From Pseudomonadota bacterium (lineage in GTDB: Bacteria > Desulfobacterota > Desulfobacteria > Desulfobacterales > RPRI01): a DNA stretch of 64,000 nucleotides. A model generated the notes under the pieces. That model did not search any database, was not told the DNA's origin, and saw only the letters and a program-made list of their open reading frames with translations. The stretch lies in assembly GCA_043825875.1 (NCBI GenBank), contig JBDRRF010000103.1, positions 48,150 through 112,149 on the forward strand, given 5' to 3'. Both the position numbers and the translations under genes were made by a program. The number at the start of each line of letters is the position of its first letter. Position 1 is the stretch's first letter. Below, piece by piece: positions 46,916 to 58,753 of the stretch.

Positions 46916-49042
46916 TTAAACATTTTCAAGATCGAATCCAATTGACAACCGGATCTTTTGCCACTCGGAATCCATAAGCAGAAAATATCCGAACAGGCCG
47001 TATCGATAGATTTCAGGATCTTTGGCCGGATCATAGGGCTCCGTTATATTTGTGGCATACATCAATCGGCCAAGAAAAAGCCCATCGGCTATCTGAACCA
47101 GCTCATCTATGCAGTAACAATCCGGAATTATCGTTTTTAACATTGGCCAGCGGTAGTTGAGCTGAAACGTTTCTTTGCCAATGCTTAAAGGATTAAATGA
47201 AATGTTTTTTCTTGCAATAAAGAAGAAATTCTTAACATCATAGCCAAATTCCTGGGCTTCTTCTGTTGTTGCCTTTTCAGTCCATATATCGGCCACATCC
47301 ATCAGTCGTCCTACAAAACGCTCTTTAAGGGTGCGCAAAGCCTGACCGTTTGAACCCCATACAGTATTAACCTTTCCGGTTTCATACCCATCGGTGAATT
47401 CAATAAGTTTTTCTTTGGATACAGGATCAAATCGTTTACCTGTCCATGTGGAAAAAGGAGATGCTACGCTTGTGTAAAGCAGATTAATGATGTTTTTCCC
47501 GAAGAGGTCGAAAATGCCTGCCGAATGCCAGCTTATAAGCGCACCATAGTAGAAGCCATCCATAGTATCGGGGGCAATCCCACGGTTAAACAGTTCTGAA
47601 AGCTGATCAAAATATGGCGATTTATTTAGCAAATTATCCTTAAGCTCCCTGGAGTGTGTTTTCAGATAATGAAGCAAAGTGGGATACTTTCCTGCTTTAA
47701 TAAGTATTTCAGATTTTAATTTATCATTGCATATTGGCAGTGCCGGTTCCTGAAACGTAAAGTCATTAAATTTATTCTGCTTGAAATTAGCCTCTATTCC
47801 GGTTTGTTTCATGCCTGGGGCATCGGGTGGAATATCCAGATATGGAAAAAGACGACGTGCCTCGGCATGCCAATTGCTGTCTAAAAGAAGAAAATATCCG
47901 AAGTTCTGATAGTTGTAATCTTCGGGGGGCCGCTTTGGATCATAATCTTGTAACAGTTTACGTGTTGCATAACAGAGTTGTCCTAAAAACAGACCGGGAG
48001 AAACCTCTACAAGTTCATCAATAAGCCAACCATTAGGAACCGGATTATTTAAAGCCTTATAGCGATAGTTTAACTGAAATACGGGACGTACTGACTTGTC
48101 AGATACGGAAAAAGCCGGGGTACCGATAAAATAGCCTCCGTTTTTTTCCCATCCATATGCCCGTTGTTCACTTTCAGGAGCCGGATGCAGGTTCATCCAT
48201 GAATTTAACATCTGAAAGGCTATGGGATTTATAATGCGGGTGGAAATTTTATTGAAATGATTTATCCCCAAAAGTATAGGTTCATCTGCTTTTGCTTGTT
48301 TTCCAATAATTGACTGCATCCTTGATTCTTCAACACGTTCGAGGCTTTTGCCCACCCAGGGGCTTTCGTTAGACGCTGTGGTGCCCCATATATATCCTAA
48401 AACATTTCCAAAATCAGCAACGCTCTCCGGCATTTCACCACAACGTATCCCAAGCGTGATTCCATAAAAATGCCCCTGCACGATTTCCGGAGTCCGGCCT
48501 GCATCAAATAAAGTTGCAAGGCTAGTATAAACAGGATCATTATTGTCTGCGCTGCGATCAAGAACTCTTTTATATTCGTAAAACAGCTCAAGTATCGAAC
48601 CATGTTTTTCAAGTTTTTTATTGAATTCATTTAGAATGAAATCTTTAACATTACTGTCTGAACGAAAAGTCCATGTTTTTATATCCGGCGTGCCCTTGCA
48701 TAATGGATCTTCAATCTGATGTTCTATATCGGCTTTAGCCAAAAGCCGACTTGGTATGTTTACATCAATTAAAAGATCTTTTGTGACATCATAGATAATA
48801 TGATTACGGGTGCTATTTAAGACATCGCCATTTGCACTCTTAACCTTCAAATAGATATCAGGCTTGTCGATTATTTCATTTTTGGCTTCACATTTTATTG
48901 CAAATGCACCACCGGCATCAGTTTGGGTAGTACCAAGAAGATCGTCAATAAATAAATCGGCATCATATGCTTCTACGGTAAGACCGGCTACGCCTTGTCC
49001 GTTTTCTTTACATTTAGCGGTTCCACTGATAGTAAATCCCAT
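46916..49042 (-). CDS. Uncharacterised 708-aa protein: transthyretin-like N-domain + two tandem copies of a ~240-aa module (GXWXG/DUF4334-like by recollection)
   Basis: Strong RBS AAGGAGG, 3-nt gap to the activase gene and no signal peptide. The N-terminal VAGLTVEAYDADLFIDDLLGTTQTDAGGAF is transthyretin/CarboxypepD_reg-like. Internal repeat: FQLNYRYKALNNPVPNGWLIDELVEVSPGLFLGQLCYAT...FGYFLLLDSNW versus FQLNYRWPMLKTIIPDCYCIDELVQIADGLFLGRLMYAT...FGYFLLMDSEW. Confidence 0.6.
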   Translation of the reverse strand: MGFTISGTAKCKENGQGVAGLTVEAYDADLFIDDLLGTTQTDAGGAFAIKCEAKNEIIDKPDIYLKVKSANGDVLNSTRNHIIYDVTKDLLIDVNIPSRLLAKADIEHQIEDPLCKGTPDIKTWTFRSDSNVKDFILNEFNKKLEKHGSILELFYEYKRVLDRSADNNDPVYTSLATLFDAGRTPEIVQGHFYGITLGIRCGEMPESVADFGNVLGYIWGTTASNESPWVGKSLERVEESRMQSIIGKQAKADEPILLGINHFNKISTRIINPIAFQMLNSWMNLHPAPESEQRAYGWEKNGGYFIGTPAFSVSDKSVRPVFQLNYRYKALNNPVPNGWLIDELVEVSPGLFLGQLCYATRKLLQDYDPKRPPEDYNYQNFGYFLLLDSNWHAEARRLFPYLDIPPDAPGMKQTGIEANFKQNKFNDFTFQEPALPICNDKLKSEILIKAGKYPTLLHYLKTHSRELKDNLLNKSPYFDQLSELFNRGIAPDTMDGFYYGALISWHSAGIFDLFGKNIINLLYTSVASPFSTWTGKRFDPVSKEKLIEFTDGYETGKVNTVWGSNGQALRTLKERFVGRLMDVADIWTEKATTEEAQEFGYDVKNFFFIARKNISFNPLSIGKETFQLNYRWPMLKTIIPDCYCIDELVQIADGLFLGRLMYATNITEPYDPAKDPEIYRYGLFGYFLLMDSEWQKIRLSIGFDLENV

Positions 49043-49045
49043 TAT

Positions 49046-49966
49046 CTACCTCCTTGTGCGATGTTGGTTCACGATAGTACTAAACATTTGTTCAATATCC
49101 CGGTATTCATCTAAAGGCATGGATTGTGCGCAAAGATCATCCGAAGCATCTTTTCCCAGAGCAGCGGCTTTAAAAAGTGTTCCGGGGTGATATGGGCGAA
49201 GGATATAAGATAAATTATCTATAGCACCAATGTATTCGGCTATCGCCTTAATATTTTTTGAATCTGCTGTAAATCCGCCTATAACAGGAATTGAACATAT
49301 AAGTTTGTCGCGTGCCACATCTTTAAGTTTTGAAAAATTTGTAAGAATAATATTATTGTTTTGCCCGGTAAGTCTCTGGTGAATATCCGGAGCAAGTAAT
49401 TTTATGTCAAAATATATCAGATCGATCATGTCAAGCAATGTACTTTCAAAAAGATCCCAGTTAAAAAAACCGCAGGTTTGAATTGCTGTATGAATTTTCT
49501 CTTTTTTCAGTTTTTGTAAAACCTGGCCAAGGTAACGACAGTCCTGTGTAGGTTCACCCCCCGAAAAAGTAACGCCTCCTTTTGAATGTTCAAAGAATCG
49601 TTTATCTTTAAGCAGTATTTGTACAAGTTCTTCCGGTTCATAATATTGCCCTTTGATAGTTAGAGCTTTGCCAGGGCAAACGGATGCACACAATCCGCAA
49701 TTATTGCATGTATCACGGTCAATTTTAACAAAGCCATTTATCATAATAGCATTTTCAGGACATACTGATGAGCAGTCACCGCAAAGTATGCAATTTTGCG
49801 GCTGATGGTACAGTTCGGGTTCAGAGCTTATGCCTTCAGGATTATGACACCAGAGACAGCTTAATGGGCAGCCTTTGAAAAATACTGTACTTCTTATTCC
49901 TGGCCCGTCATCTAAAGCATACCGATGAATGTCGAATATAAGCGGCCGTTGTTTATCAAAGCTCAT
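49046..49966 (-). CDS. Glycyl-radical enzyme activating enzyme (radical SAM, with two auxiliary 4Fe-4S motifs)
   Basis: 306-aa ORF with CPLSCLWCHNPE, the ferredoxin-like motifs CILCGDCSSVCP and CNNCGLCASVCP, and GGEPT. Confidence 0.9.
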   Translation of the reverse strand: MSFDKQRPLIFDIHRYALDDGPGIRSTVFFKGCPLSCLWCHNPEGISSEPELYHQPQNCILCGDCSSVCPENAIMINGFVKIDRDTCNNCGLCASVCPGKALTIKGQYYEPEELVQILLKDKRFFEHSKGGVTFSGGEPTQDCRYLGQVLQKLKKEKIHTAIQTCGFFNWDLFESTLLDMIDLIYFDIKLLAPDIHQRLTGQNNNIILTNFSKLKDVARDKLICSIPVIGGFTADSKNIKAIAEYIGAIDNLSYILRPYHPGTLFKAAALGKDASDDLCAQSMPLDEYRDIEQMFSTIVNQHRTRR

Positions 49967-49970
49967 TGCA

Positions 49971-50432
49971 TTATAAGCTCGGCATATATTTTAACTGCAA
50001 ATTTTTGGACATATATCCAAATTTATGAATATAATTCAGGTTACCGTCTATAGTAATATCTTGTTTCAATATTGAACCAAGAATGTCAGGTTTGGGGCTT
50101 AGCAGAAAATCCATAAGCGCTTTACCATCGCGAAAAGTCACAGTAATATTAGTATCGCCTATTTCTTTTTTGGCAACCTTCATTTTATTATCTTTAAATA
50201 TTGCAGCTACAGTGATTGTTTTATCCTTGCTGCAAAACAGATAACGTGCGTCAAAATTTTTGATGTTTCTTCTAAAATCCTTATCCAGACAAAGCACAAG
50301 ACTCATTAGATTTAAAAGTACATCCAAAAAACCTTCAGCCTTTTCGGATTGTAAGGTTTGCAAAAACTTGTCAGCAGCGGTTTTAGCACGTTGTGCTCTC
50401 ATCAAAACAATATTTAACAATTTATCCCACAT
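49971..50432 (-). CDS. SCP2 (sterol carrier protein 2)-like small protein
   Basis: ORF track starts at 50486, inside the GRE gene. The probable start is ATG at 50432 (MWDKLLN), preceded by GGGAG. The C-terminal pattern TFRDGKALMDFLLSPKPDILGSILKQDITIDGNLNYIHKF resembles the SCP2 fold consensus, from memory. Confidence 0.5.
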   Translation of the reverse strand: MWDKLLNIVLMRAQRAKTAADKFLQTLQSEKAEGFLDVLLNLMSLVLCLDKDFRRNIKNFDARYLFCSKDKTITVAAIFKDNKMKVAKKEIGDTNITVTFRDGKALMDFLLSPKPDILGSILKQDITIDGNLNYIHKFGYMSKNLQLKYMPSL

Positions 50433-50454
50433 AATATCGGTCTCCCTGTAATAG

Positions 50455-52935
50455 TTATTTTGTTCCCAGCATATCGCTGTGAGCATCCGGAAATATTACG
50501 GACTTACCATTTTTAAGATCATATGCAGTACGAGTGATGATCTCTTCTTTCATGGCATCGTTAAGATCTTTGAAATAGGCGGAATATCCCGAAACTCTTA
50601 CCAGTAGTTCGGGATAATCATCCGGGTGCTCTTTAGCATCAAGCAGCATTTCATAATCCATGATATTGCACTGAATATGCAAGCCTCCGCATTCAAAATA
50701 AGTTTCAATTCCTGCACCAAATCTGTCTATATCTTCGGCTCCGTTTATCGCCGGATATTTTAAGTTGAATGCTTCTCCGCCGGGAATACAAAGGGGATCC
50801 AATCCTCCTACCGATTGCAGGCAGGAGGCCAAATCGGTAGCAGCCTGGGAAACCGGAGTAATGCCGCTTGCAAAAACTTTATTCGCTTTACGGCCATTGG
50901 GCAATGCACCGCAAAGCTTGCCCTGGCCGGCATGGTTTGTCATTGTCCAGAAGGCCGGCCTGTATTTGCCGCCACGGTAGTTGGTATGTTTTTGGTAAAA
51001 ATCAAACAACAATTTTACTACCCGCTGGGCATTGGCCTGAGACTCAGGTTCCATACTGCCGTATTTGGGAGTTTGGTTTACAAGATAAGCATGCAACTTA
51101 TCATAACCGTTAAAATCTGCTTTCATAGCAGTAATAAGTTCCGAAAAAGTGCATTTGCGGTCAGTAAAAATAGCCTTTTCAATTGCGCTTATTGAATCAA
51201 CAGTATCTGCAAACCCTATATGGGTAGCACCGGAAGAATTATAAATTGCGCCACCGAAAATTAAATCCTTGCCTTTTTCCAGGGGCCCTTCAAAAAAAGC
51301 CGAAAGCAAAGGCGATGGCAAAATATCCTGATAAACCTTGCCAAACATTTCATTAAGCTCAATAGCTTTTCCGGCAAGCCACTCAAACTGCTTTGAAAAG
51401 GCGTTCCAGAAATCTTCGAAATCGTTAAAGGCCGACAGTTCGCCGGTAGCAGGGCCTATCTGCTCATCACCGGTAACCGGCCTTTTACCATTATATAAGA
51501 CAAGTTCCAAAACGGAAGCAAGGTTTAGCATGATGGAGCTGGAAGCATCATAACTGCGCCCTGCGGAAGCCAGCTCCACACAACCTATAACAGCGTAATC
51601 CCTGGCGTGTTCGGTTTTTATTCCCTGGTTTTCAAGAGTTTTAATATCTGCAATATCGTTATGTACAGCAGGTACAGAGCGGGTATTTGCTATAACTTCT
51701 GCTACCCGGTTGCGGTAGTCCTTGCTGTTTATATTCTGGTGATAGCGGGCGTTTAAACTTGGATCACGGGTTTTAAGCAATTCGGTTACACGCAGCATTA
51801 AATAGGTAAGATCGTTTACTGCATCTTTCCCTTCGGTATCAACACCTCCTACAGTTACGGCCGGAACCGTTCCGGCACCACCGAATAACTCCTCGGCAGT
51901 TTCCGGCACAAGATTTGTGTTGTCATTCAGCTTAAGCCACAAACAGCCTATTAGTTCCAAGGCTTCTTCAATATTTAGTTTACCGGCTTTAATATCACGC
52001 TCAAAATATGGATAGAGTATCTGATCCAGCCGACCCGGGCTCATAGCCATATTTATATTTTCAGCATGAATTGCTACCTGAATTATCCACAAAGAATTAA
52101 TTGCTTCGCGAAAACTCCTGGCTGGCTTTGCAGGAACCTGGGCGCAAACTTCTGCCATCTTCTGATAATTTGCTTTGCGCTCTAAATTACTTTCATTTTT
52201 AGCAAGCTTTGCTGCTTCCGCACTCAAGTTTGCAGCATATGCAATAATACCCTGCAAGGCTATTTGAACCGCCCGGTAGAAAAGCATACTTCGCTGTTCT
52301 TCTTCATTAAGGTTTCCCTTGGCCTTGATTTCCTGCTCCTTTTTGGCCGCCTGCTTTATAATATATTCTATTCCATGTTCAAGCGCTGTCACATAATAAG
52401 GCACAGTGTGGGAAATAGTTCCCGCCTTGCTTGCTATAAAAAACACTATGCGCTCGAAAAGCCTCATGCATTCCGGATTATTATAACGCTTCCGCGTAAC
52501 TTCCAAAGGACTTCTATCCATCCAGTAAGGGTAGATATCAAAGTTAAGTTTTTCTATTTCCTCAGGGGTCAGTGTTTGAGGATTTTTATCACGTTTGCTG
52601 ATCACATCAAGTTCCGACCAGATATGAAGACCTGTCCACTCAGGATAAACCGGTGCACCAAAAGGTTTAGAGCAGGTAGTACCGGCAAGCAGATTGTCGT
52701 CAAAAAAAAGCGGCTTTTTTTCCTTTAAAAAATATGCCACCGCTCCGGCATAACGTGTTAGCATGGGATCATTGTCTGAGGACATGTCTTTTAAAAAACG
52801 GGTAACAAAATCAGCCCGCTCGATGCATACCGCCGGTTTTATCTTAAGCAGGTTACTGCGCAAACTGTTGAGAAGCGGCATATTGTCTAAAGTATGTTCT
52901 TTGAGCCTTATGTCTTGTAATGTTATTTCACTCAT
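50455..52935 (-). CDS. Glycyl-radical enzyme, PFL2/glycerol-dehydratase-like clade, substrate unknown
   Basis: 826-aa ORF with AAGGAG RBS. The catalytic loop VIGCVELASAG has a single Cys followed by Glu. The glycyl radical motif is LLVRVSGYSAYF near the C-terminus. Confidence 0.9.
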   Translation of the reverse strand: MSEITLQDIRLKEHTLDNMPLLNSLRSNLLKIKPAVCIERADFVTRFLKDMSSDNDPMLTRYAGAVAYFLKEKKPLFFDDNLLAGTTCSKPFGAPVYPEWTGLHIWSELDVISKRDKNPQTLTPEEIEKLNFDIYPYWMDRSPLEVTRKRYNNPECMRLFERIVFFIASKAGTISHTVPYYVTALEHGIEYIIKQAAKKEQEIKAKGNLNEEEQRSMLFYRAVQIALQGIIAYAANLSAEAAKLAKNESNLERKANYQKMAEVCAQVPAKPARSFREAINSLWIIQVAIHAENINMAMSPGRLDQILYPYFERDIKAGKLNIEEALELIGCLWLKLNDNTNLVPETAEELFGGAGTVPAVTVGGVDTEGKDAVNDLTYLMLRVTELLKTRDPSLNARYHQNINSKDYRNRVAEVIANTRSVPAVHNDIADIKTLENQGIKTEHARDYAVIGCVELASAGRSYDASSSIMLNLASVLELVLYNGKRPVTGDEQIGPATGELSAFNDFEDFWNAFSKQFEWLAGKAIELNEMFGKVYQDILPSPLLSAFFEGPLEKGKDLIFGGAIYNSSGATHIGFADTVDSISAIEKAIFTDRKCTFSELITAMKADFNGYDKLHAYLVNQTPKYGSMEPESQANAQRVVKLLFDFYQKHTNYRGGKYRPAFWTMTNHAGQGKLCGALPNGRKANKVFASGITPVSQAATDLASCLQSVGGLDPLCIPGGEAFNLKYPAINGAEDIDRFGAGIETYFECGGLHIQCNIMDYEMLLDAKEHPDDYPELLVRVSGYSAYFKDLNDAMKEEIITRTAYDLKNGKSVIFPDAHSDMLGTK

Positions 52936-53245
52936 GGATAGTCTCCTTTATTTATGACATATGTCCTGACTTGAATGGGTACCAATAGCAGAATAAATTT
53001 GTCTTTAAGAATATATCATTAAATTATGGTTTCCTACGGGGTCGAATTTAGAGAGTTTTGAATAAATTACATTTATATTATCGGGGTATGTGATCAGAAC
53101 TTTTTTTTCCGATGGCAAATCTTAGGGGAATCAGCCTTTTATGTCAATATAAAAATAATCGCTTTTGTTGAGTTTTGTTAATAATTACTATAGCAAAGGC
53201 CTTATTCCGATAACATAAACTCTCTTTCACAGAACTTTGTTATAA

Positions 53246-54874
53246 TTATGATTTATCATGACATTTGGAACAAGATGTGGGCCCGGTTTTTTCTCCTGTC
53301 TTTTTCATTTCCCGGTGGCATTTTATACAATAATCCATTGCCTGTTTGGTTTGAAGTTTTCCATTTGACTTCATCTCAAAGATAGCGCCAATTTTTTTTG
53401 GAAACATATCGTGACAAGTCATACAATCTTTCACCGCTTTCTCATGTTTTTCATGGGGAAAGTCAATACTTCCCCTATCACCTCCTGAAAGCTCAAAAAC
53501 TTCTTTGACAGCCTTCCCGTTTTCCGGAAATATTGTTTCAATTTGCTCCATTGTAATTACAGGTAAAACATTCTTCCCTTTTCCCAGAACCATATCTATT
53601 AATTTCTGTGGAGCACTCCTGTAAAGCAATTTTACCGAAACAGATAACTGTTCGAAGTTTTTCTTTTGAAATACAATCTCTTCCCTGGCAGATTCTTTGG
53701 GCGGAATACGTTTATCTTTTAAAATTTCACGGGCTTTTGAGATATTTAAAACCGGATTACCTTTTCCGTCTCCAAAAATTGTGTTATAAATTATTGTGCC
53801 TTCGGTTATATAGCCATCTTTATCAAGCTTTCCGCTTGAATAAACGATATTATTATTTTCATCTTTAATAACAATTTCAAGCCACATCTGCCGCACATCC
53901 GTAAGGCCGGTTGGAAGGTAGTGACCGGCTCCTGAATTTGTTATAATTATACCAAGCTTTCCTTTTTTTAACTCAAGTGTATCCAGAAGTATATCGGCGC
54001 TATTAGTCAACCTTTCTATTGCCATATCCCTTTTTTCCATACTATTAAAATTTGCAGGAACAACCGTATTTGCGCCTGTAAAATAATGTGTGAATATATG
54101 ATCCCTTATTGGTCCATCATCGGCAGCCCTGCCTTTATTAAAAGGTCTTGGTGTGGATGCTGTTGCCGGAATACCTGGACGTTGATACATATGGCAGCCC
54201 TGACAGGTAATTTTTTGTGTTTCATCTTTGTTATTGTATGGTCCGTTTTTCCATTCGTCATATGTAGTCTCAAGTTTGGTAGCAAATGATACATGAGATA
54301 CATTATGGCAGGTGCCACATATTTTTGCATCGGTGTGAAATTCGGAAAAAGCACTTTCATGATAATCGGAATTGGAATCCTTAAATGGTCCGCGTTTTAT
54401 GCCCGGATCATCTTCGCCATGCCCCGGACTAAGAATTAGCCCGTTGTTATAAATTTTATCCGCGCCAGTTGCCGAATGGCAATAATCACACTGGATTCCT
54501 TTTTTTGCTATTTCAGGAACCTTAGCTCTGTTATCTGAAGTTTTTTCAGGATATCCTGTAATATTGCCAACAGGGGTATGACATTTAATACATGATTCGC
54601 TTTCGGCAATTTCACCATTATCATTCAAACCTGAAAGCATATACTTTGAAACCGCAACATATAAAGGATCTTCATGGGAAAGATGATGCATGGAATTTTG
54701 CCACTGGCTATATATTGTGCTATGACAGTCACCACAAACCTCAGGTGAAACAAAGCGATCAATTGTAAGCTTTTCGGCATATGAAAAAACCGCAATGAAA
54801 AAAATTGCGGCTATCATAATTCCAGCTAAAAGTACCTTCTTGTTTAAAGAAAATATAGGTTGTTTTGATTTCAT
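53246..54874 (-). CDS. Octaheme c-type cytochrome, periplasmic/membrane-anchored
   Basis: Eight CxxCH motifs: CGDCH, CIKCH, CDYCH, CGTCH, CQGCH, CMTCH, CIKCH, CSKCH. An N-terminal hydrophobic anchor is present. The start is moved to ATG 54874 (GGAGCAGAG upstream), because the ORF-track start at 54907 lies inside repeat copy C. Confidence 0.85.
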   Translation of the reverse strand: MKSKQPIFSLNKKVLLAGIMIAAIFFIAVFSYAEKLTIDRFVSPEVCGDCHSTIYSQWQNSMHHLSHEDPLYVAVSKYMLSGLNDNGEIAESESCIKCHTPVGNITGYPEKTSDNRAKVPEIAKKGIQCDYCHSATGADKIYNNGLILSPGHGEDDPGIKRGPFKDSNSDYHESAFSEFHTDAKICGTCHNVSHVSFATKLETTYDEWKNGPYNNKDETQKITCQGCHMYQRPGIPATASTPRPFNKGRAADDGPIRDHIFTHYFTGANTVVPANFNSMEKRDMAIERLTNSADILLDTLELKKGKLGIIITNSGAGHYLPTGLTDVRQMWLEIVIKDENNNIVYSSGKLDKDGYITEGTIIYNTIFGDGKGNPVLNISKAREILKDKRIPPKESAREEIVFQKKNFEQLSVSVKLLYRSAPQKLIDMVLGKGKNVLPVITMEQIETIFPENGKAVKEVFELSGGDRGSIDFPHEKHEKAVKDCMTCHDMFPKKIGAIFEMKSNGKLQTKQAMDYCIKCHREMKKTGEKTGPTSCSKCHDKS

Positions 54875-54894
54875 CTCTGCTCCTGTTAACTGTT

Positions 54895-55055
54895 GAGCCA
54901 CTTTCAAAACGTTTCAGTTTGGTCAAGCTCAAGGCGGGAGAAAATTTCAACCACAGGAATACATTTAGTATTTTGAGGATAGCGCCAAAGCTTCATTTCG
55001 TGCGAAAGAGCCCAACACAGAAATCGGCCAAAATGGGGTGTTTTGAAACTGGCTC
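54895..55055 (+). repeat. Hairpin-forming intergenic repeat, copy C (161 nt)
   Basis: Same termini and the same 58-nt left arm as copies A and B, and it carries the internal extra segment like copy B. It starts 20 nt upstream of the cytochrome ATG. Confidence 0.9.
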
Positions 55056-56184: not shown

Positions 56185-56826
56185 ATGGGCTGGTTTATAA
56201 AAACCTTTACAAGTTCCATAGGTAAAAAATGGCTTATGGCTATAACAGGGCTTAGTTTTTGCGGATTTCTTACGTCACATCTATTAGGCAACCTGACTCT
56301 TTATGCAGGAAAAGATGCTTTTAATGCATATGCCGAGCATCTTCATTCTCTTGGGATACTATTATCTGTAAGTGAAAAAGGGCTTTTGTTTTTTGCGACA
56401 ATTCACATTTTAACCGGCCTTGTTCTTTTTATTCAAAACATGAAATCAAGGCCTGTAAGATACTCCGTCAACAAGAATGCCGGGGGCCGCACAATAGGAT
56501 CTGCTACTATGCCTTACACAGGCTTGATACTAATTGCCTTTATAATACTACATCTGATCAATTTTCATTTTATTGATAAAACCGGCACAACAATATTTGA
56601 AATAGTTAAGAATGCGTTTTTAAATCCGGTATATATAGCAGTTTATATATTTGCCATGATCGTGGTTGCAGTACATGTAAGTCACGGGTTCTGGAGTGCT
56701 TTTCAAACACTTGGAGCAAACCATCCCAAGTATATGCCTTTTATCAGAAAGGCGGGTATTGCCTTCAGTATATTAGTTGGACTTGGTTTCGGCTTCATAC
56801 CGGTTTTTATTTCGCTTACAACATAA
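56185..56826 (+). CDS. sdhC: Succinate dehydrogenase/fumarate reductase dihaem cytochrome b subunit (type B, single large anchor)
   Basis: 213-aa ORF with GGAGG RBS, five hydrophobic helices and conserved His residues. It lies immediately upstream of the flavoprotein and Fe-S subunits. Confidence 0.8.
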
Positions 56827-56839
56827 GGAAGGATATAAT

Positions 56840-58753
56840 ATGCAGCTTGATGCAAAAACACCGGCAGGCCCACTTGCACAAAAATGGGACAAACACCGTT
56901 TTGAGCTAAAGCTTGTCAACCCTGCAAATAAAAGAAAATACAACATAATCGTTGTTGGAACCGGCCTTGCCGGAGGTTCGGCGTCAGCATCTCTTGCCGA
57001 ACTTGGATATAATGTAAAGACATTCTGCATACAGGATAGTCCGAGACGCGCCCACAGTATTGCCGCTCAGGGCGGAATCAATGCTTCAAAAAACTATCAG
57101 AATGACAGTGACAGCGATTGGCGCCTTTTTTACGATACTATAAAAGGCGGCGATTTCAGGGCAAGAGAAGCAAATGTTTACAGACTTGCCCAGCTTAGCG
57201 GAAACATTATCGATCAATGTGTTGCTCAGGGAGTTCCGTTTGCGCGCGAATACGGAGGCCAGCTTGCAAACAGAAGTTTCGGCGGTGCTCAGGTTTCAAG
57301 AACTTTTTATGCAAGAGGCCAGACTGGTCAGCAGCTTCTTTTAGGAGCATACAGCGCACTTTCAAGACAGATTGCGGCGAAAAAAGTAGAAATGTATGCC
57401 CGAAGGGAAATGCTGGATGTTGTCGTAATAGACGGTCACGCAAAAGGAATCGTTGTCCGCAATCTTGTTTCAGGTGAAATCGAAAAATATGCCGCAGATG
57501 CGGTTGTTCTTGCCACAGGCGGATATGGCAATGTGTTTTATCTTTCAACAAATGCCATGGGCTCAAATGTTACTGCAACTTACAGAGCATATAAAAAAGG
57601 GGCTTTTTTCGCCAATCCTTGTTTTACACAGATTCACCCAACATGCATACCCGTTCACGGAACATATCAGTCAAAACTCACATTAATGAGTGAAAGCCTG
57701 AGAAATGATGGCCGGGTTTGGGTTCCCAAAAAACCTGGAGATAAAAGAAAGCCTTCCGAGATACCCGAAGCTGAACGTGATTATTATCTTGAAAACAAAT
57801 ATCCGAGTTTCGGAAACCTTGTTCCACGCGATGTTGCATCACGAAATGCCAAAGAACAGTGTGATAAGGGAAAAGGTGTCGGCGAAACAGGGCTTGCTGT
57901 TTATCTTGATTTTGCAGATGCAATCAAAAGAGACGGAAAAGACACTATAGCAAAAAAATACGGTAATCTTTTCCAGATGTACGATAAGATTACAGCCGAT
58001 AATCCCTATGAAACACCCATGATGATTTATCCCGCCGTCCACTACGCTATGGGCGGCCTATGGGTTGATTACAATCTCATGAGTACCATCGACGGTCTTT
58101 TTGTTCTGGGTGAAGCCAATTTTTCCGACCATGGTGCAAACCGCCTTGGTGCAAGTGCTCTCATGCAGGGCCTTGCAGACGGATATTTCGTAATTCCATA
58201 TACTATAGGTGGATATCTTGCTACCACACCTAAAAAAGAGATAAAAACCGATCATCCGGCATTTAAGGAATCTGAAAAAAAGATTAATGATTTTACCAAT
58301 AAACTCCTTTCCATAAAAGGAAAGCGGACGGCCGATGATTTTCACAGGCAGCTTGGAAATATTTTGTGGGAATATTGCGGTATGTCAAGAAATGACGCCG
58401 GACTTGAAAAAGCACGAAAGTTTATACAGGACTTAAGAGGAGAATTCTGGAAAAATGTTGTTGTGCCTGGCTCCGGCATGGAGTTTAACCAAAGCCTTGA
58501 AAAGGCCGGCCGTGTTGCGGATTTTCTTGAATTCGGTGAATTGTTGGTAATAGATGCTCTTTCCCGCAAGGAATCCTGTGGTGGCCATTTTAATGAGGCT
58601 CATCAAACTGAAGAAAATGAGGCAATGCGTGATGATGAGAATTTCTGCCATGTTTCGGCATGGGAGTATAAGGGAGATGGAAATGATCCCGTTCTTAATA
58701 AAGAACCTCTTACTTTTGAAAATGTCAAACTGACACAAAGGAGTTACAAGTGA
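56840..58753 (+). CDS. sdhA: Succinate dehydrogenase/fumarate reductase flavoprotein subunit
   Basis: ATG at 56840 after GGAAGG; the ORF-track start at 56777 overlaps sdhC. FAD motif [12 protein letters not shown] and covalent-FAD His region [13 protein letters not shown]. Confidence 0.9.

Follow-up and report, generated by a model that had tools for sequence, protein, structure and literature searches.

The window analyzed here is a 64,000-nt stretch of contig JBDRRF010000103.1, from a Pseudomonadota bacterium placed by GTDB in the Desulfobacterota. It contains four co-directional minus-strand genes encoding, in order, a glycyl radical enzyme (GRE), a small protein with a predicted SCP2 fold, a radical SAM activase, and a 708-aa protein that we name P708. 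As determined from the open reading frame (ORF) listing and by direct reading of the sequence, these genes are arranged as follows.

50455-52935, minus strand: GRE gene (826 aa, eliminase-type by motif)
49971-50432, minus strand: gene for the small SCP2-fold protein (153 aa)
49046-49966, minus strand: activase gene (306 aa, radical SAM)
46916-49042, minus strand: P708 gene (708 aa)

The gaps between successive genes are 22, 4, and 3 nt, in agreement with a preliminary description of this DNA, which had placed the genes 3-22 nt apart. The same description credited every gene with a good ribosome-binding site. This holds for the GRE gene (AGGAG), the small gene (GGGAGA), and the P708 gene (AAGGAGG), but not for the activase gene, for which no obvious Shine-Dalgarno motif was seen in the sequence and whose 4-nt gap makes translational coupling likely. 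In the case of the small gene, the longest ORF (49971-50486, minus strand) encodes 171 aa from a start located 54 nt upstream and overlaps the 3' end of the GRE gene. We favor instead the ATG at 50432, which has GGGAGA ahead of it and yields a 153-aa protein, because 153 aa is the modal length among 154 homologue clusters. An automatic gene caller could give the overlapping 171-aa product in place of the 153-aa protein.

The first gene product has the features shared by the GRE superfamily: a PFL-like ten-stranded barrel domain (PF02901, E value 4.9e-168), a C-terminal glycyl radical domain (Gly_radical, PF01228, 1e-17), an RVxG[FWY] motif, a Cys loop and, two genes downstream, the gene of a cognate radical SAM activase. 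Both catalytic motifs described earlier for this 826-aa protein, GCVE and RVSGY, were read from the sequence, and both are conserved in the family alignment.

51574-51585, minus strand: Cys loop codons G451-C452-V453-E454 (CXE motif)
50584-50598, minus strand: glycyl radical motif codons R780-V-S-G783-Y784

GRE eliminases share a conserved CXE motif (PMC7077986), which supports the view, already expressed on the basis of the single Cys followed by Glu, that this is an eliminase/dehydratase-type enzyme as judged by motif. In an alignment with GREs of other loci that are linked to an SCP2-fold gene, the Cys loop motif is kept in 28 of 30.

Family models and solved structures support a placement outside all characterized GRE families, as had been proposed. 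In NCBIfam, the protein scores under every equivalog cut-off, including those of CutC (451 against 1050), HypD (449 against 1100), HpsG (445 against 1000), and PFL (136 against 994); it also scores below the cut-offs for IAD, HPAD, and HpsG/HpfG and below that of TIGR01774, the PFL2/glycerol dehydratase subfamily (556.7 against 678.2 bits). Its best scores against solved structures are 421 bits for CutC, 419 for Archaeoglobus fulgidus PFL2, and 396 for glycerol dehydratase, with MasD (229), BSS (208), and PFL (108) far more distant. The PFL2 of A. fulgidus (2f3o) has the same G-C-V-E loop but is no closer than CutC. Most SCP2-linked GREs of other phyla, with the exception of one small divergent branch, score 650-1640 bits against the window GRE, and an acidobacterial representative scores 684 bits against it and at most 395 bits against any solved GRE. 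Judged by these bit scores rather than by a tree, the SCP2-linked GREs appear closer to each other than to anything characterized.

Pairwise alignment with glycerol dehydratase indicates which active-site residues are likely to be kept. The equivalent of His164 is retained as His176, within T-I-S-H-T, whereas His281/Ser282 are replaced by Met/Ala, Asp447 by Ser, and the Tyr-rich loop GGYPMYQN by GGAGTVPA. Because contact residues are replaced by smaller or apolar ones, the pocket is probably less polar and larger than that of glycerol dehydratase. Alignment of the SCP2-linked GREs separates two sub-lineages within which active-site features are otherwise kept.

The activase displays a radical SAM CX3CX2C motif at C33/C37/C40 and, as noted before, two extra ferredoxin-type clusters, i.e. 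CxxCxxCxxxCP motifs at C59-C69 and C87-C97. It matches Pfam Radical_SAM and Fer4, and scores 278.8 bits against NCBIfam TIGR02494, above the cut-off of 174. With its PFL-like barrel, glycyl radical domain, CXE and RVxG motifs, retained His164 equivalent, and dedicated activase with extra ferredoxin clusters, the system resembles the GRE eliminases, i.e. B12-independent glycerol/propanediol dehydratases, choline TMA-lyase CutC, HypD, and isethionate sulfite-lyase. It differs from them in its scores of ∼420 bits or less against solved members, in substrate-contact positions that are smaller or apolar compared with glycerol dehydratase and CutC, and in having an SCP2-fold partner without microcompartment or aldehyde-processing genes. 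Indeed, as the preliminary description had stated, the usual GRE accessory genes are missing: no shell proteins, aldehyde/alcohol dehydrogenases, Fe-S small subunits, or transporters are encoded between 39.6 and 58.7 kb of the window.

For the 153-aa protein, searches of Pfam, NCBIfam, and PDB sequences returned nothing above threshold. Among 24 relatives, 10 have matches to PF02036 (best E value 0.0018), which stay below the gathering threshold. An AlphaFold2 model built on 40 sequences, with a predicted local distance difference test (pLDDT) score of 86, was informative: its top Foldseek match is the UbiJ-SCP2 structure 6h6p (E value 5.5e-6, probability 1.0), and it is followed by the SCP2 domains of alkylsulfatases (2yhe, 2cfu) and by eukaryotic, archaeal, and bacterial SCP2 proteins. 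Across these matches, E values range from 5.5e-6 to 1e-3, with a probability of 1.0 and TM scores of 0.5-0.7 on the target. A predicted SCP2 α/β fold is thus well supported by the model, as had been suspected for this ∼153-aa protein. Within the family of 154 homologue clusters, UniRef labels one member, from Desulfobacterium sp. N47, "SCP2 domain-containing," and JGI labels two others "UbiJ."

SCP2 modules of the UbiJ/UbiT type and those of alkylsulfatases, which provide the best structural matches, are small and hold a hydrophobic substrate for a partner enzyme. The 153-aa protein differs from the UbiJ/UbiT type in that it has no above-threshold sequence match, its partner is a GRE, and its model contains an extra 30-residue N-terminal helix. 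Its gene is directly 3' of the GRE gene in the core loci examined. In a Pseudomonadota metagenome-assembled genome (MAG), CSMAG_1789, there is a natural in-frame GRE::SCP2 fusion (L016:2-1753, plus strand). This contig begins inside the GRE gene, and the fusion comprises GRE residues 437-814, a linker that replaces the N-terminal helix of the SCP2 protein, and then SCP2 residues 34-147. The fusion supports the view that the SCP2 protein and the GRE are physically associated. In being encoded beside a catalytic GRE gene and probably bound to its product, the SCP2 protein is reminiscent of the small subunits of X-succinate synthases and HPAD. Those are HiPIP-like or rubredoxin-like metal-binding proteins, the only accessory subunits named in the passages retrieved by keyword from a 2026 GRE review (PMC13450708), whereas the SCP2 protein has another predicted fold and its family shows no conserved cysteine when homologues are compared. 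We infer from the modeled fold that it may be a lipid-binding subunit or carrier of the GRE.

The operon had been regarded as an orphan. This view has to be abandoned because the order GRE, SCP2, activase, on one strand, is invariant in ∼40 loci from at least eight phyla, counting loci with all three genes inside the fetched stretch. Core loci occur in Desulfobacterota, Nitrospirota, Nitrospinota, Acidobacteriota, Gemmatimonadota, Chloroflexota, Myxococcota, Planctomycetota, and Deferribacteres; in L002/L052, four extra genes stand between the SCP2 and activase genes. This conservation was reached from two sides. Among P708 homologues, a GRE, a ∼150-160-aa protein without Pfam match, and an activase are encoded adjacently in a Dehalococcoidia MAG, a Gemmatimonadota genome, and an Acidobacteriia contig, with the gene order differing among the three. 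A scan of species-representative genomes with P708 gave 114 matches, of which 80 loci were kept. The kept loci belong to Desulfobacterota (with Desulfobacterium sp. N47, Syntrophaceae, and Syntrophorhabdaceae among them), Myxococcota (two cultured Enhygromyxa salina strains among them), Acidobacteriota, Nitrospirota, Nitrospinota, Planctomycetota, Gemmatimonadota, and Deferribacteres. In an independent start from homologues of the SCP2 protein, the core triplet was present wherever there was sufficient sequence.

A divergent branch is found in L058:11837-15470, L062:11843-15450, and L063:1948-5528, where the GREs are ∼975-990 aa long, score 364-381 bits against the window GRE, and keep G-C-I-E. 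A 212-aa distant SCP2 relative then follows, and after it an activase in both L058 and L062, the contig of L063 being too short to show one.

The two Enhygromyxa salina loci, from an aerobic myxobacterium, are also unusual (L050:12636-15203 and L051:12672-15263, both minus strand). Their GRE homologue shares 49% identity with the window GRE, but GCVE has become NG-SP, His176 is replaced by Arg, and RVSGY reads PVSGH or QVSGH. No activase is encoded in the fetched flanks, which cover ∼7 kb past the GRE gene and 10 kb past the P708 gene. Still, the gene adjoins SCP2 and P708 genes. By sequence, the homologue looks like a retained pseudo-enzyme, and the loss of motifs with kept neighbors suggests a role for the assembly that is independent of radical chemistry.

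P708, the product of the last gene, has an N-terminal domain followed by two related modules.

48728-49042, minus strand: N-terminal transthyretin-like/immunoglobulin (Ig)-like domain, approximately residues 1-105 (Pfam TTR-52, 8.9e-4)
47870-48643, minus strand: module 1, residues 134-391 (BLASTP against module 2)
46961-47725, minus strand: module 2, residues 440-694 (BLASTP against module 1)

As the preliminary description had recognized, P708 has a transthyretin-like head and a duplicated module. The internal duplication is real: the two modules, each ∼260 aa, share 29% identity in BLASTP (E value 3e-35) and the invariant motifs W-x-G-K, N-Y-R, D-E-L-V, and G-L-Y-L-G. For the head, Foldseek identified TTR-52 (3uaf, E value 5.7e-5) and transthyretins, and CarboxypepD_reg and bMG3 give weak matches at the N terminus of other members, so that a weak hidden Markov model (HMM) match and a predicted structure together point to an Ig-like β-sandwich. 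This domain is absent from the ∼600-aa homologues, which make up approximately one-third of those listed. No signal peptide was seen by eye, and P708 is taken to be cytoplasmic. The AlphaFold2 model of P708 has a pLDDT score of 84, and the secondary structure of the modules consists of eight strands plus helices.

The modules themselves appear to represent a new family. The full-length protein has nothing above threshold in Pfam, NCBIfam, and PDB sequence searches, a profile search of family members found no Pfam family matching the modules, and a Foldseek search of the full model against PDB and BFVD matched only the N-terminal transthyretin-like domain. A lipoxygenase match (5ek8, E value 1.9e-6) was rejected, as it has a TM score of 0.11 and a root mean square deviation of 25 Å. 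The resemblance to GXWXG/DUF4334 proteins that had been suggested earlier found no support in any profile test: 48 full-length members gave no HMM match to GXWXG (PF14231) or DUF4334 (PF14232) at E ≤ 1, eight short single-module and two longer relatives gave none at E ≤ 0.01, and 120 further relatives carry no precomputed Pfam domain. The likeness is at the level of motifs only (W-x-G-K ... D-E-L-V ... G-L-Y-L-G ... F-F-x-L).

Homologues of P708 form at least 314 clusters and are named "hypothetical" or unnamed, except for one domain-level label; the window protein is 98% identical to a protein of "MAG: Proteobacteria bacterium KKC46_14520." A module profile run against 1.84 billion representatives retrieved 133 clusters. 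Among the relatives is a ∼190-aa single-module family of at least 808 members without Pfam labels, whose few named sources are Actinomycetota MAGs. In L079:7971-10003, L082:9878-11925, and L083:1902-3982, the modules are encoded by two adjacent genes (∼320 and ∼358 aa), and these split versions support a two-module unit for P708. In protein P0010 (1023 aa), activase and P708 are fused, the stop codon having been lost and the 3-nt spacer being read through as Ser-Thr. In two other loci (L089:6001-8257 and L090:6001-8270), a ∼191-aa single-module relative is encoded together with an APH-type kinase and a HAD phosphatase as a conserved set of three, next to genes for cytochrome oxidase and bc1; distant P708 relatives, too, thus have phosphoryl-transfer enzymes beside them.

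P708 is a frequent but optional partner of the GRE core. Well-flanked P708 loci, defined by 6 kb or more of sequence on either side, numbered 36 in our ORF and HMM analysis. A GRE is encoded in 18 of them, nearly always with SCP2 and activase genes alongside, a 415-aa β-propeller and a GMC flavoprotein instead in 13, and neither in 5. From the SCP2 side, a P708-type gene is adjacent in two of five evaluable lineages (L087/L094, and in single-module form L091). Across phyla the partner genes are conserved neighbors, the constant unit being GRE, SCP2, and activase, with P708 optional. The occurrence of P708 in GRE-less contexts as well speaks against a chaperone dedicated to the GRE, as had been suggested for the partners.

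An example of such a context is L033:6399-15339 (plus strand), with ∼20 similar loci in Pyrinomonadaceae, Terriglobia, Myxococcota, and Polyangia. These contain genes for a PhoD-like protein, a 286-aa protein without assigned function, the 415-aa β-propeller, P708, a metallophosphoesterase, and a cholesterol-oxidase-like GMC flavoprotein, all apparently cytoplasmic, and the set looks like a separate conserved cluster. Cholesterol oxidase is the nearest match of the GMC enzyme (1coy, 4e-29, compared with ∼1e-12 for the next family), which scores 238 bits, below the cut-off, for the NCBIfam cholesterol oxidase model. The idea that GRE and flavoprotein/propeller are strict alternatives was rejected, since L073 and L075, which have shorter flanks, hold elements of both.

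We also surveyed the neighbors of the core by a Pfam scan of 150 proteins encoded around GRE cores of other loci, considering the 25 most frequent families and taking PAS-domain signaling proteins as background. The recurrent families are DUF6765 (7 of 150) and Metallophos, i.e. calcineurin-like phosphoesterases (4 of 150); no shell proteins, transporters, or aldehyde dehydrogenases are among the 25. DUF6765, the most frequent extra neighbor, occurs in L024:11793-12755 (minus strand), L086:5249-6331, L093:10351-11367, and seven other loci. It has a His/Asp-rich H-x3-D-x3-H motif and sub-threshold matches to Zn_dep_PLPC, a Zn-dependent phospholipase C family (E values 0.05-0.8). PLD-like, class-3 lipase, aldehyde:ferredoxin oxidoreductase, and Fe-alcohol dehydrogenase genes were seen as single cases, the last two together in L093 (1544-2698 and 12460-14180), the only aldehyde-handling case seen near a core. 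The window itself was searched for metallophosphoesterases, DUF6765, GMC oxidoreductase, and β-propeller, and none is present.

Taken together, these findings lead us to propose, with a probability of about 0.5, that a widespread three-gene core encodes a GRE of the eliminase type whose substrate is an amphipathic or lipid alcohol bound by its SCP2 subunit. The route would be modeled on glycerol/propanediol dehydratase, CutC, and IslA. In brief, the activase would install a radical on Gly783, from where it would move to Cys452; the Cys452 thiyl radical would then take a hydrogen off the hydroxyl-bearing carbon, Glu454, aided by His176, would accept the hydroxyl proton, and the adjacent substituent (a hydroxyl or other C-O/C-X group) would be eliminated to give a carbonyl product. 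The SCP2 subunit might grip the hydrophobic part of the substrate (a lipid, a long-chain or polyprenyl alcohol, or a diol), with its polar end fed into the buried active site. P708 may bind or act on this metabolite, either ahead of the GRE reaction or following it. Because metallophosphoesterases and DUF6765 recur, we suggest that the former, and possibly a phospholipase-C-like DUF6765, could release the substrate from a phosphorylated lipid-type precursor. That P708 is partnered by either a GRE or a cholesterol-oxidase-like flavoprotein might, speculatively, mean that a carbonyl is formed on a related lipid alcohol in two ways, one without and one with oxygen. The hydrophobic or carrier-presented substrate mentioned in the preliminary description thus gains from the GRE::SCP2 fusion and the lipid- or phosphoester-related neighbors, and it stays a suggestion.

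A bolder version of this proposal, which we advance tentatively and consider possible rather than probable, is that this is the first GRE acting on a membrane lipid. The SCP2 protein would extract a lipid alcohol, on which the GRE would perform radical elimination, i.e. dehydration or C-O cleavage next to the carbinol carbon; P708 and the phosphoesterases would constitute the rest of a novel lipid-turnover pathway, and flavoprotein and β-propeller an oxygen-dependent version of it. Candidates would include a dephosphorylated glycerol ether or diradylglycerol, a polyol lipid, and a sterol- or hopanoid-type alcohol. Our literature searches for a GRE in connection with SCP2, sterol carriers, lipids, or ether cleavage brought up no relevant paper, and a general search of recent GRE papers and one for DUF4334 yielded no GRE-SCP2 or GRE-lipid link. 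A paper on a limonene GRE was set aside as a precedent, as it concerns a fumarate-adding, unrelated enzyme.

Several points weigh against a lipid-processing system. Both the substrate class and lipid binding are what we infer. The SCP2 assignment comes from predicted structure and sub-threshold HMM matches, and the active sites were compared in pairwise sequence alignments rather than in structures. Substrates may differ between the two GRE sub-lineages, because several putative contact positions do (GGAGTVPA versus GGTGSNQA, and RSYDASSS versus RFYGHSGA). The phosphoesterase/phospholipase-C theme is thin, given the E values of Zn_dep_PLPC, and the absence of downstream catabolic genes fits lipid remodeling no better than a scattered catabolic pathway. 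Finally, there is no P708 gene within 9 kb of the core in three of the five SCP2-side lineages (L086, L088, and L093), and the SCP2-fold subunit could be purely structural.

This last point leads to the most serious rival, in which the SCP2-fold protein is merely a structural or regulatory small subunit, like the beta/gamma subunits of benzylsuccinate synthase or the gamma subunit of HPAD, and the GRE acts on a small soluble metabolite, such as a diol, an amino alcohol, or a sulfonate, with no lipid involved. Gene adjacency and the GRE::SCP2 fusion speak for association, not for cargo; accessory small subunits beside the catalytic gene are known for some GREs, according to the 2026 review (PMC13450708), and the characterized eliminases all act on small polar substrates, e.g. 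glycerol, propanediol, choline, hydroxyproline, and sulfonates (PMC7077986). We nevertheless judge it unlikely. The known GRE small subunits, as far as the retrieved passages of the review cover them, are the metal proteins described above, from which a family without conserved Cys stands apart; the predicted fold resembles proteins for which lipids, alkyl chains, or polyprenyl quinones are the ligands in solved examples; and no soluble-substrate transporter or binding protein is among the 25 most frequent neighbor families. That the P708 gene is a downstream passenger in this lineage, with no functional tie to the GRE, would agree with its absence near the three cores just mentioned and with the half of the well-flanked P708 loci that lack a GRE. 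This seems improbable to us, as P708 adjoins the core in at least six phyla, with varying orders and orientations that are unexpected from shared ancestry of a single operon, and as the 3-nt gap in the window, the activase::P708 fusion, and the retention of P708 beside the Enhygromyxa GRE homologue all argue for a tie.

The enzyme could also be a fumarate-adding hydrocarbon activator, as proposed for PflD-like GREs of alkane degraders, with the SCP2 protein delivering an alkane. A hydrophobic carrier suits a hydrocarbon, a close homologue is found in the naphthalene-degrading culture Desulfobacterium sp. N47, and A. fulgidus PFL2, the second-best solved relative, was once proposed to activate alkanes. 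PFL2 is still listed as function-unassigned in the 2026 GRE review (PMC13450708). We consider this reading very improbable: the X-succinate synthases MasD and BSS score only 229 and 208 bits, compared with ∼400 for the eliminases; the GRE carries the CXE eliminase motif; the operon has no gene for an Fe-S (HiPIP-like) small subunit, and neither such subunits nor succinyl-CoA transferase or β-oxidation genes recur nearby; and the family is found in soil Acidobacteriota and Gemmatimonadota. A GRE-associated microcompartment is likewise not indicated, as shell genes are missing both from the 39.6-58.7-kb region and from the 25 most frequent neighbor families.

What appears to be new is therefore an eliminase-type GRE with a new class of subunit and partner proteins, the substrate of which is probably hydrophobic. 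To our knowledge, the anaerobic attack on recalcitrant lipids in sediments, aquifers, and soils is poorly understood. If our proposal is correct, an SCP2-bearing GRE would bring hydrophobic or membrane-derived substrates within reach of radical elimination chemistry. A defined function would annotate many genomes, as illustrated by the 154 SCP2-partner clusters, the at least 314 P708 clusters, and the 114 species-representative matches. P708 would stand as a new duplicated-module protein family, whose alternating partners offer a handle on a shared metabolite.

The remaining features of the region concern the surroundings of the operon.

53119-53147, minus strand: promoter-like site TTGACA-17-TAAGAT, in the 310-nt gap that precedes the GRE gene (consensus scan)
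53246-54907, minus strand: multihaem cytochrome c (553 aa), directly upstream of the operon
56185-58753, plus strand: fumarate reductase/succinate dehydrogenase cytochrome b and flavoprotein pair, beyond the cytochrome c gene

In this region, the count of promoter-like sites is not above the shuffled expectation, and the terminator scan is likewise at background, so that the site at 53119-53147 is merely consistent with an operon promoter. Neighbors encoded within 39.6-58.7 kb include a phosphofructokinase, a periplasmic-binding/TPR protein, a class II aldolase-like protein, a NUDIX protein, and an amidohydrolase, in addition to the multihaem cytochrome c and the fumarate reductase/succinate dehydrogenase set, and these last two fit an anaerobic host of the Desulfobacterota type.

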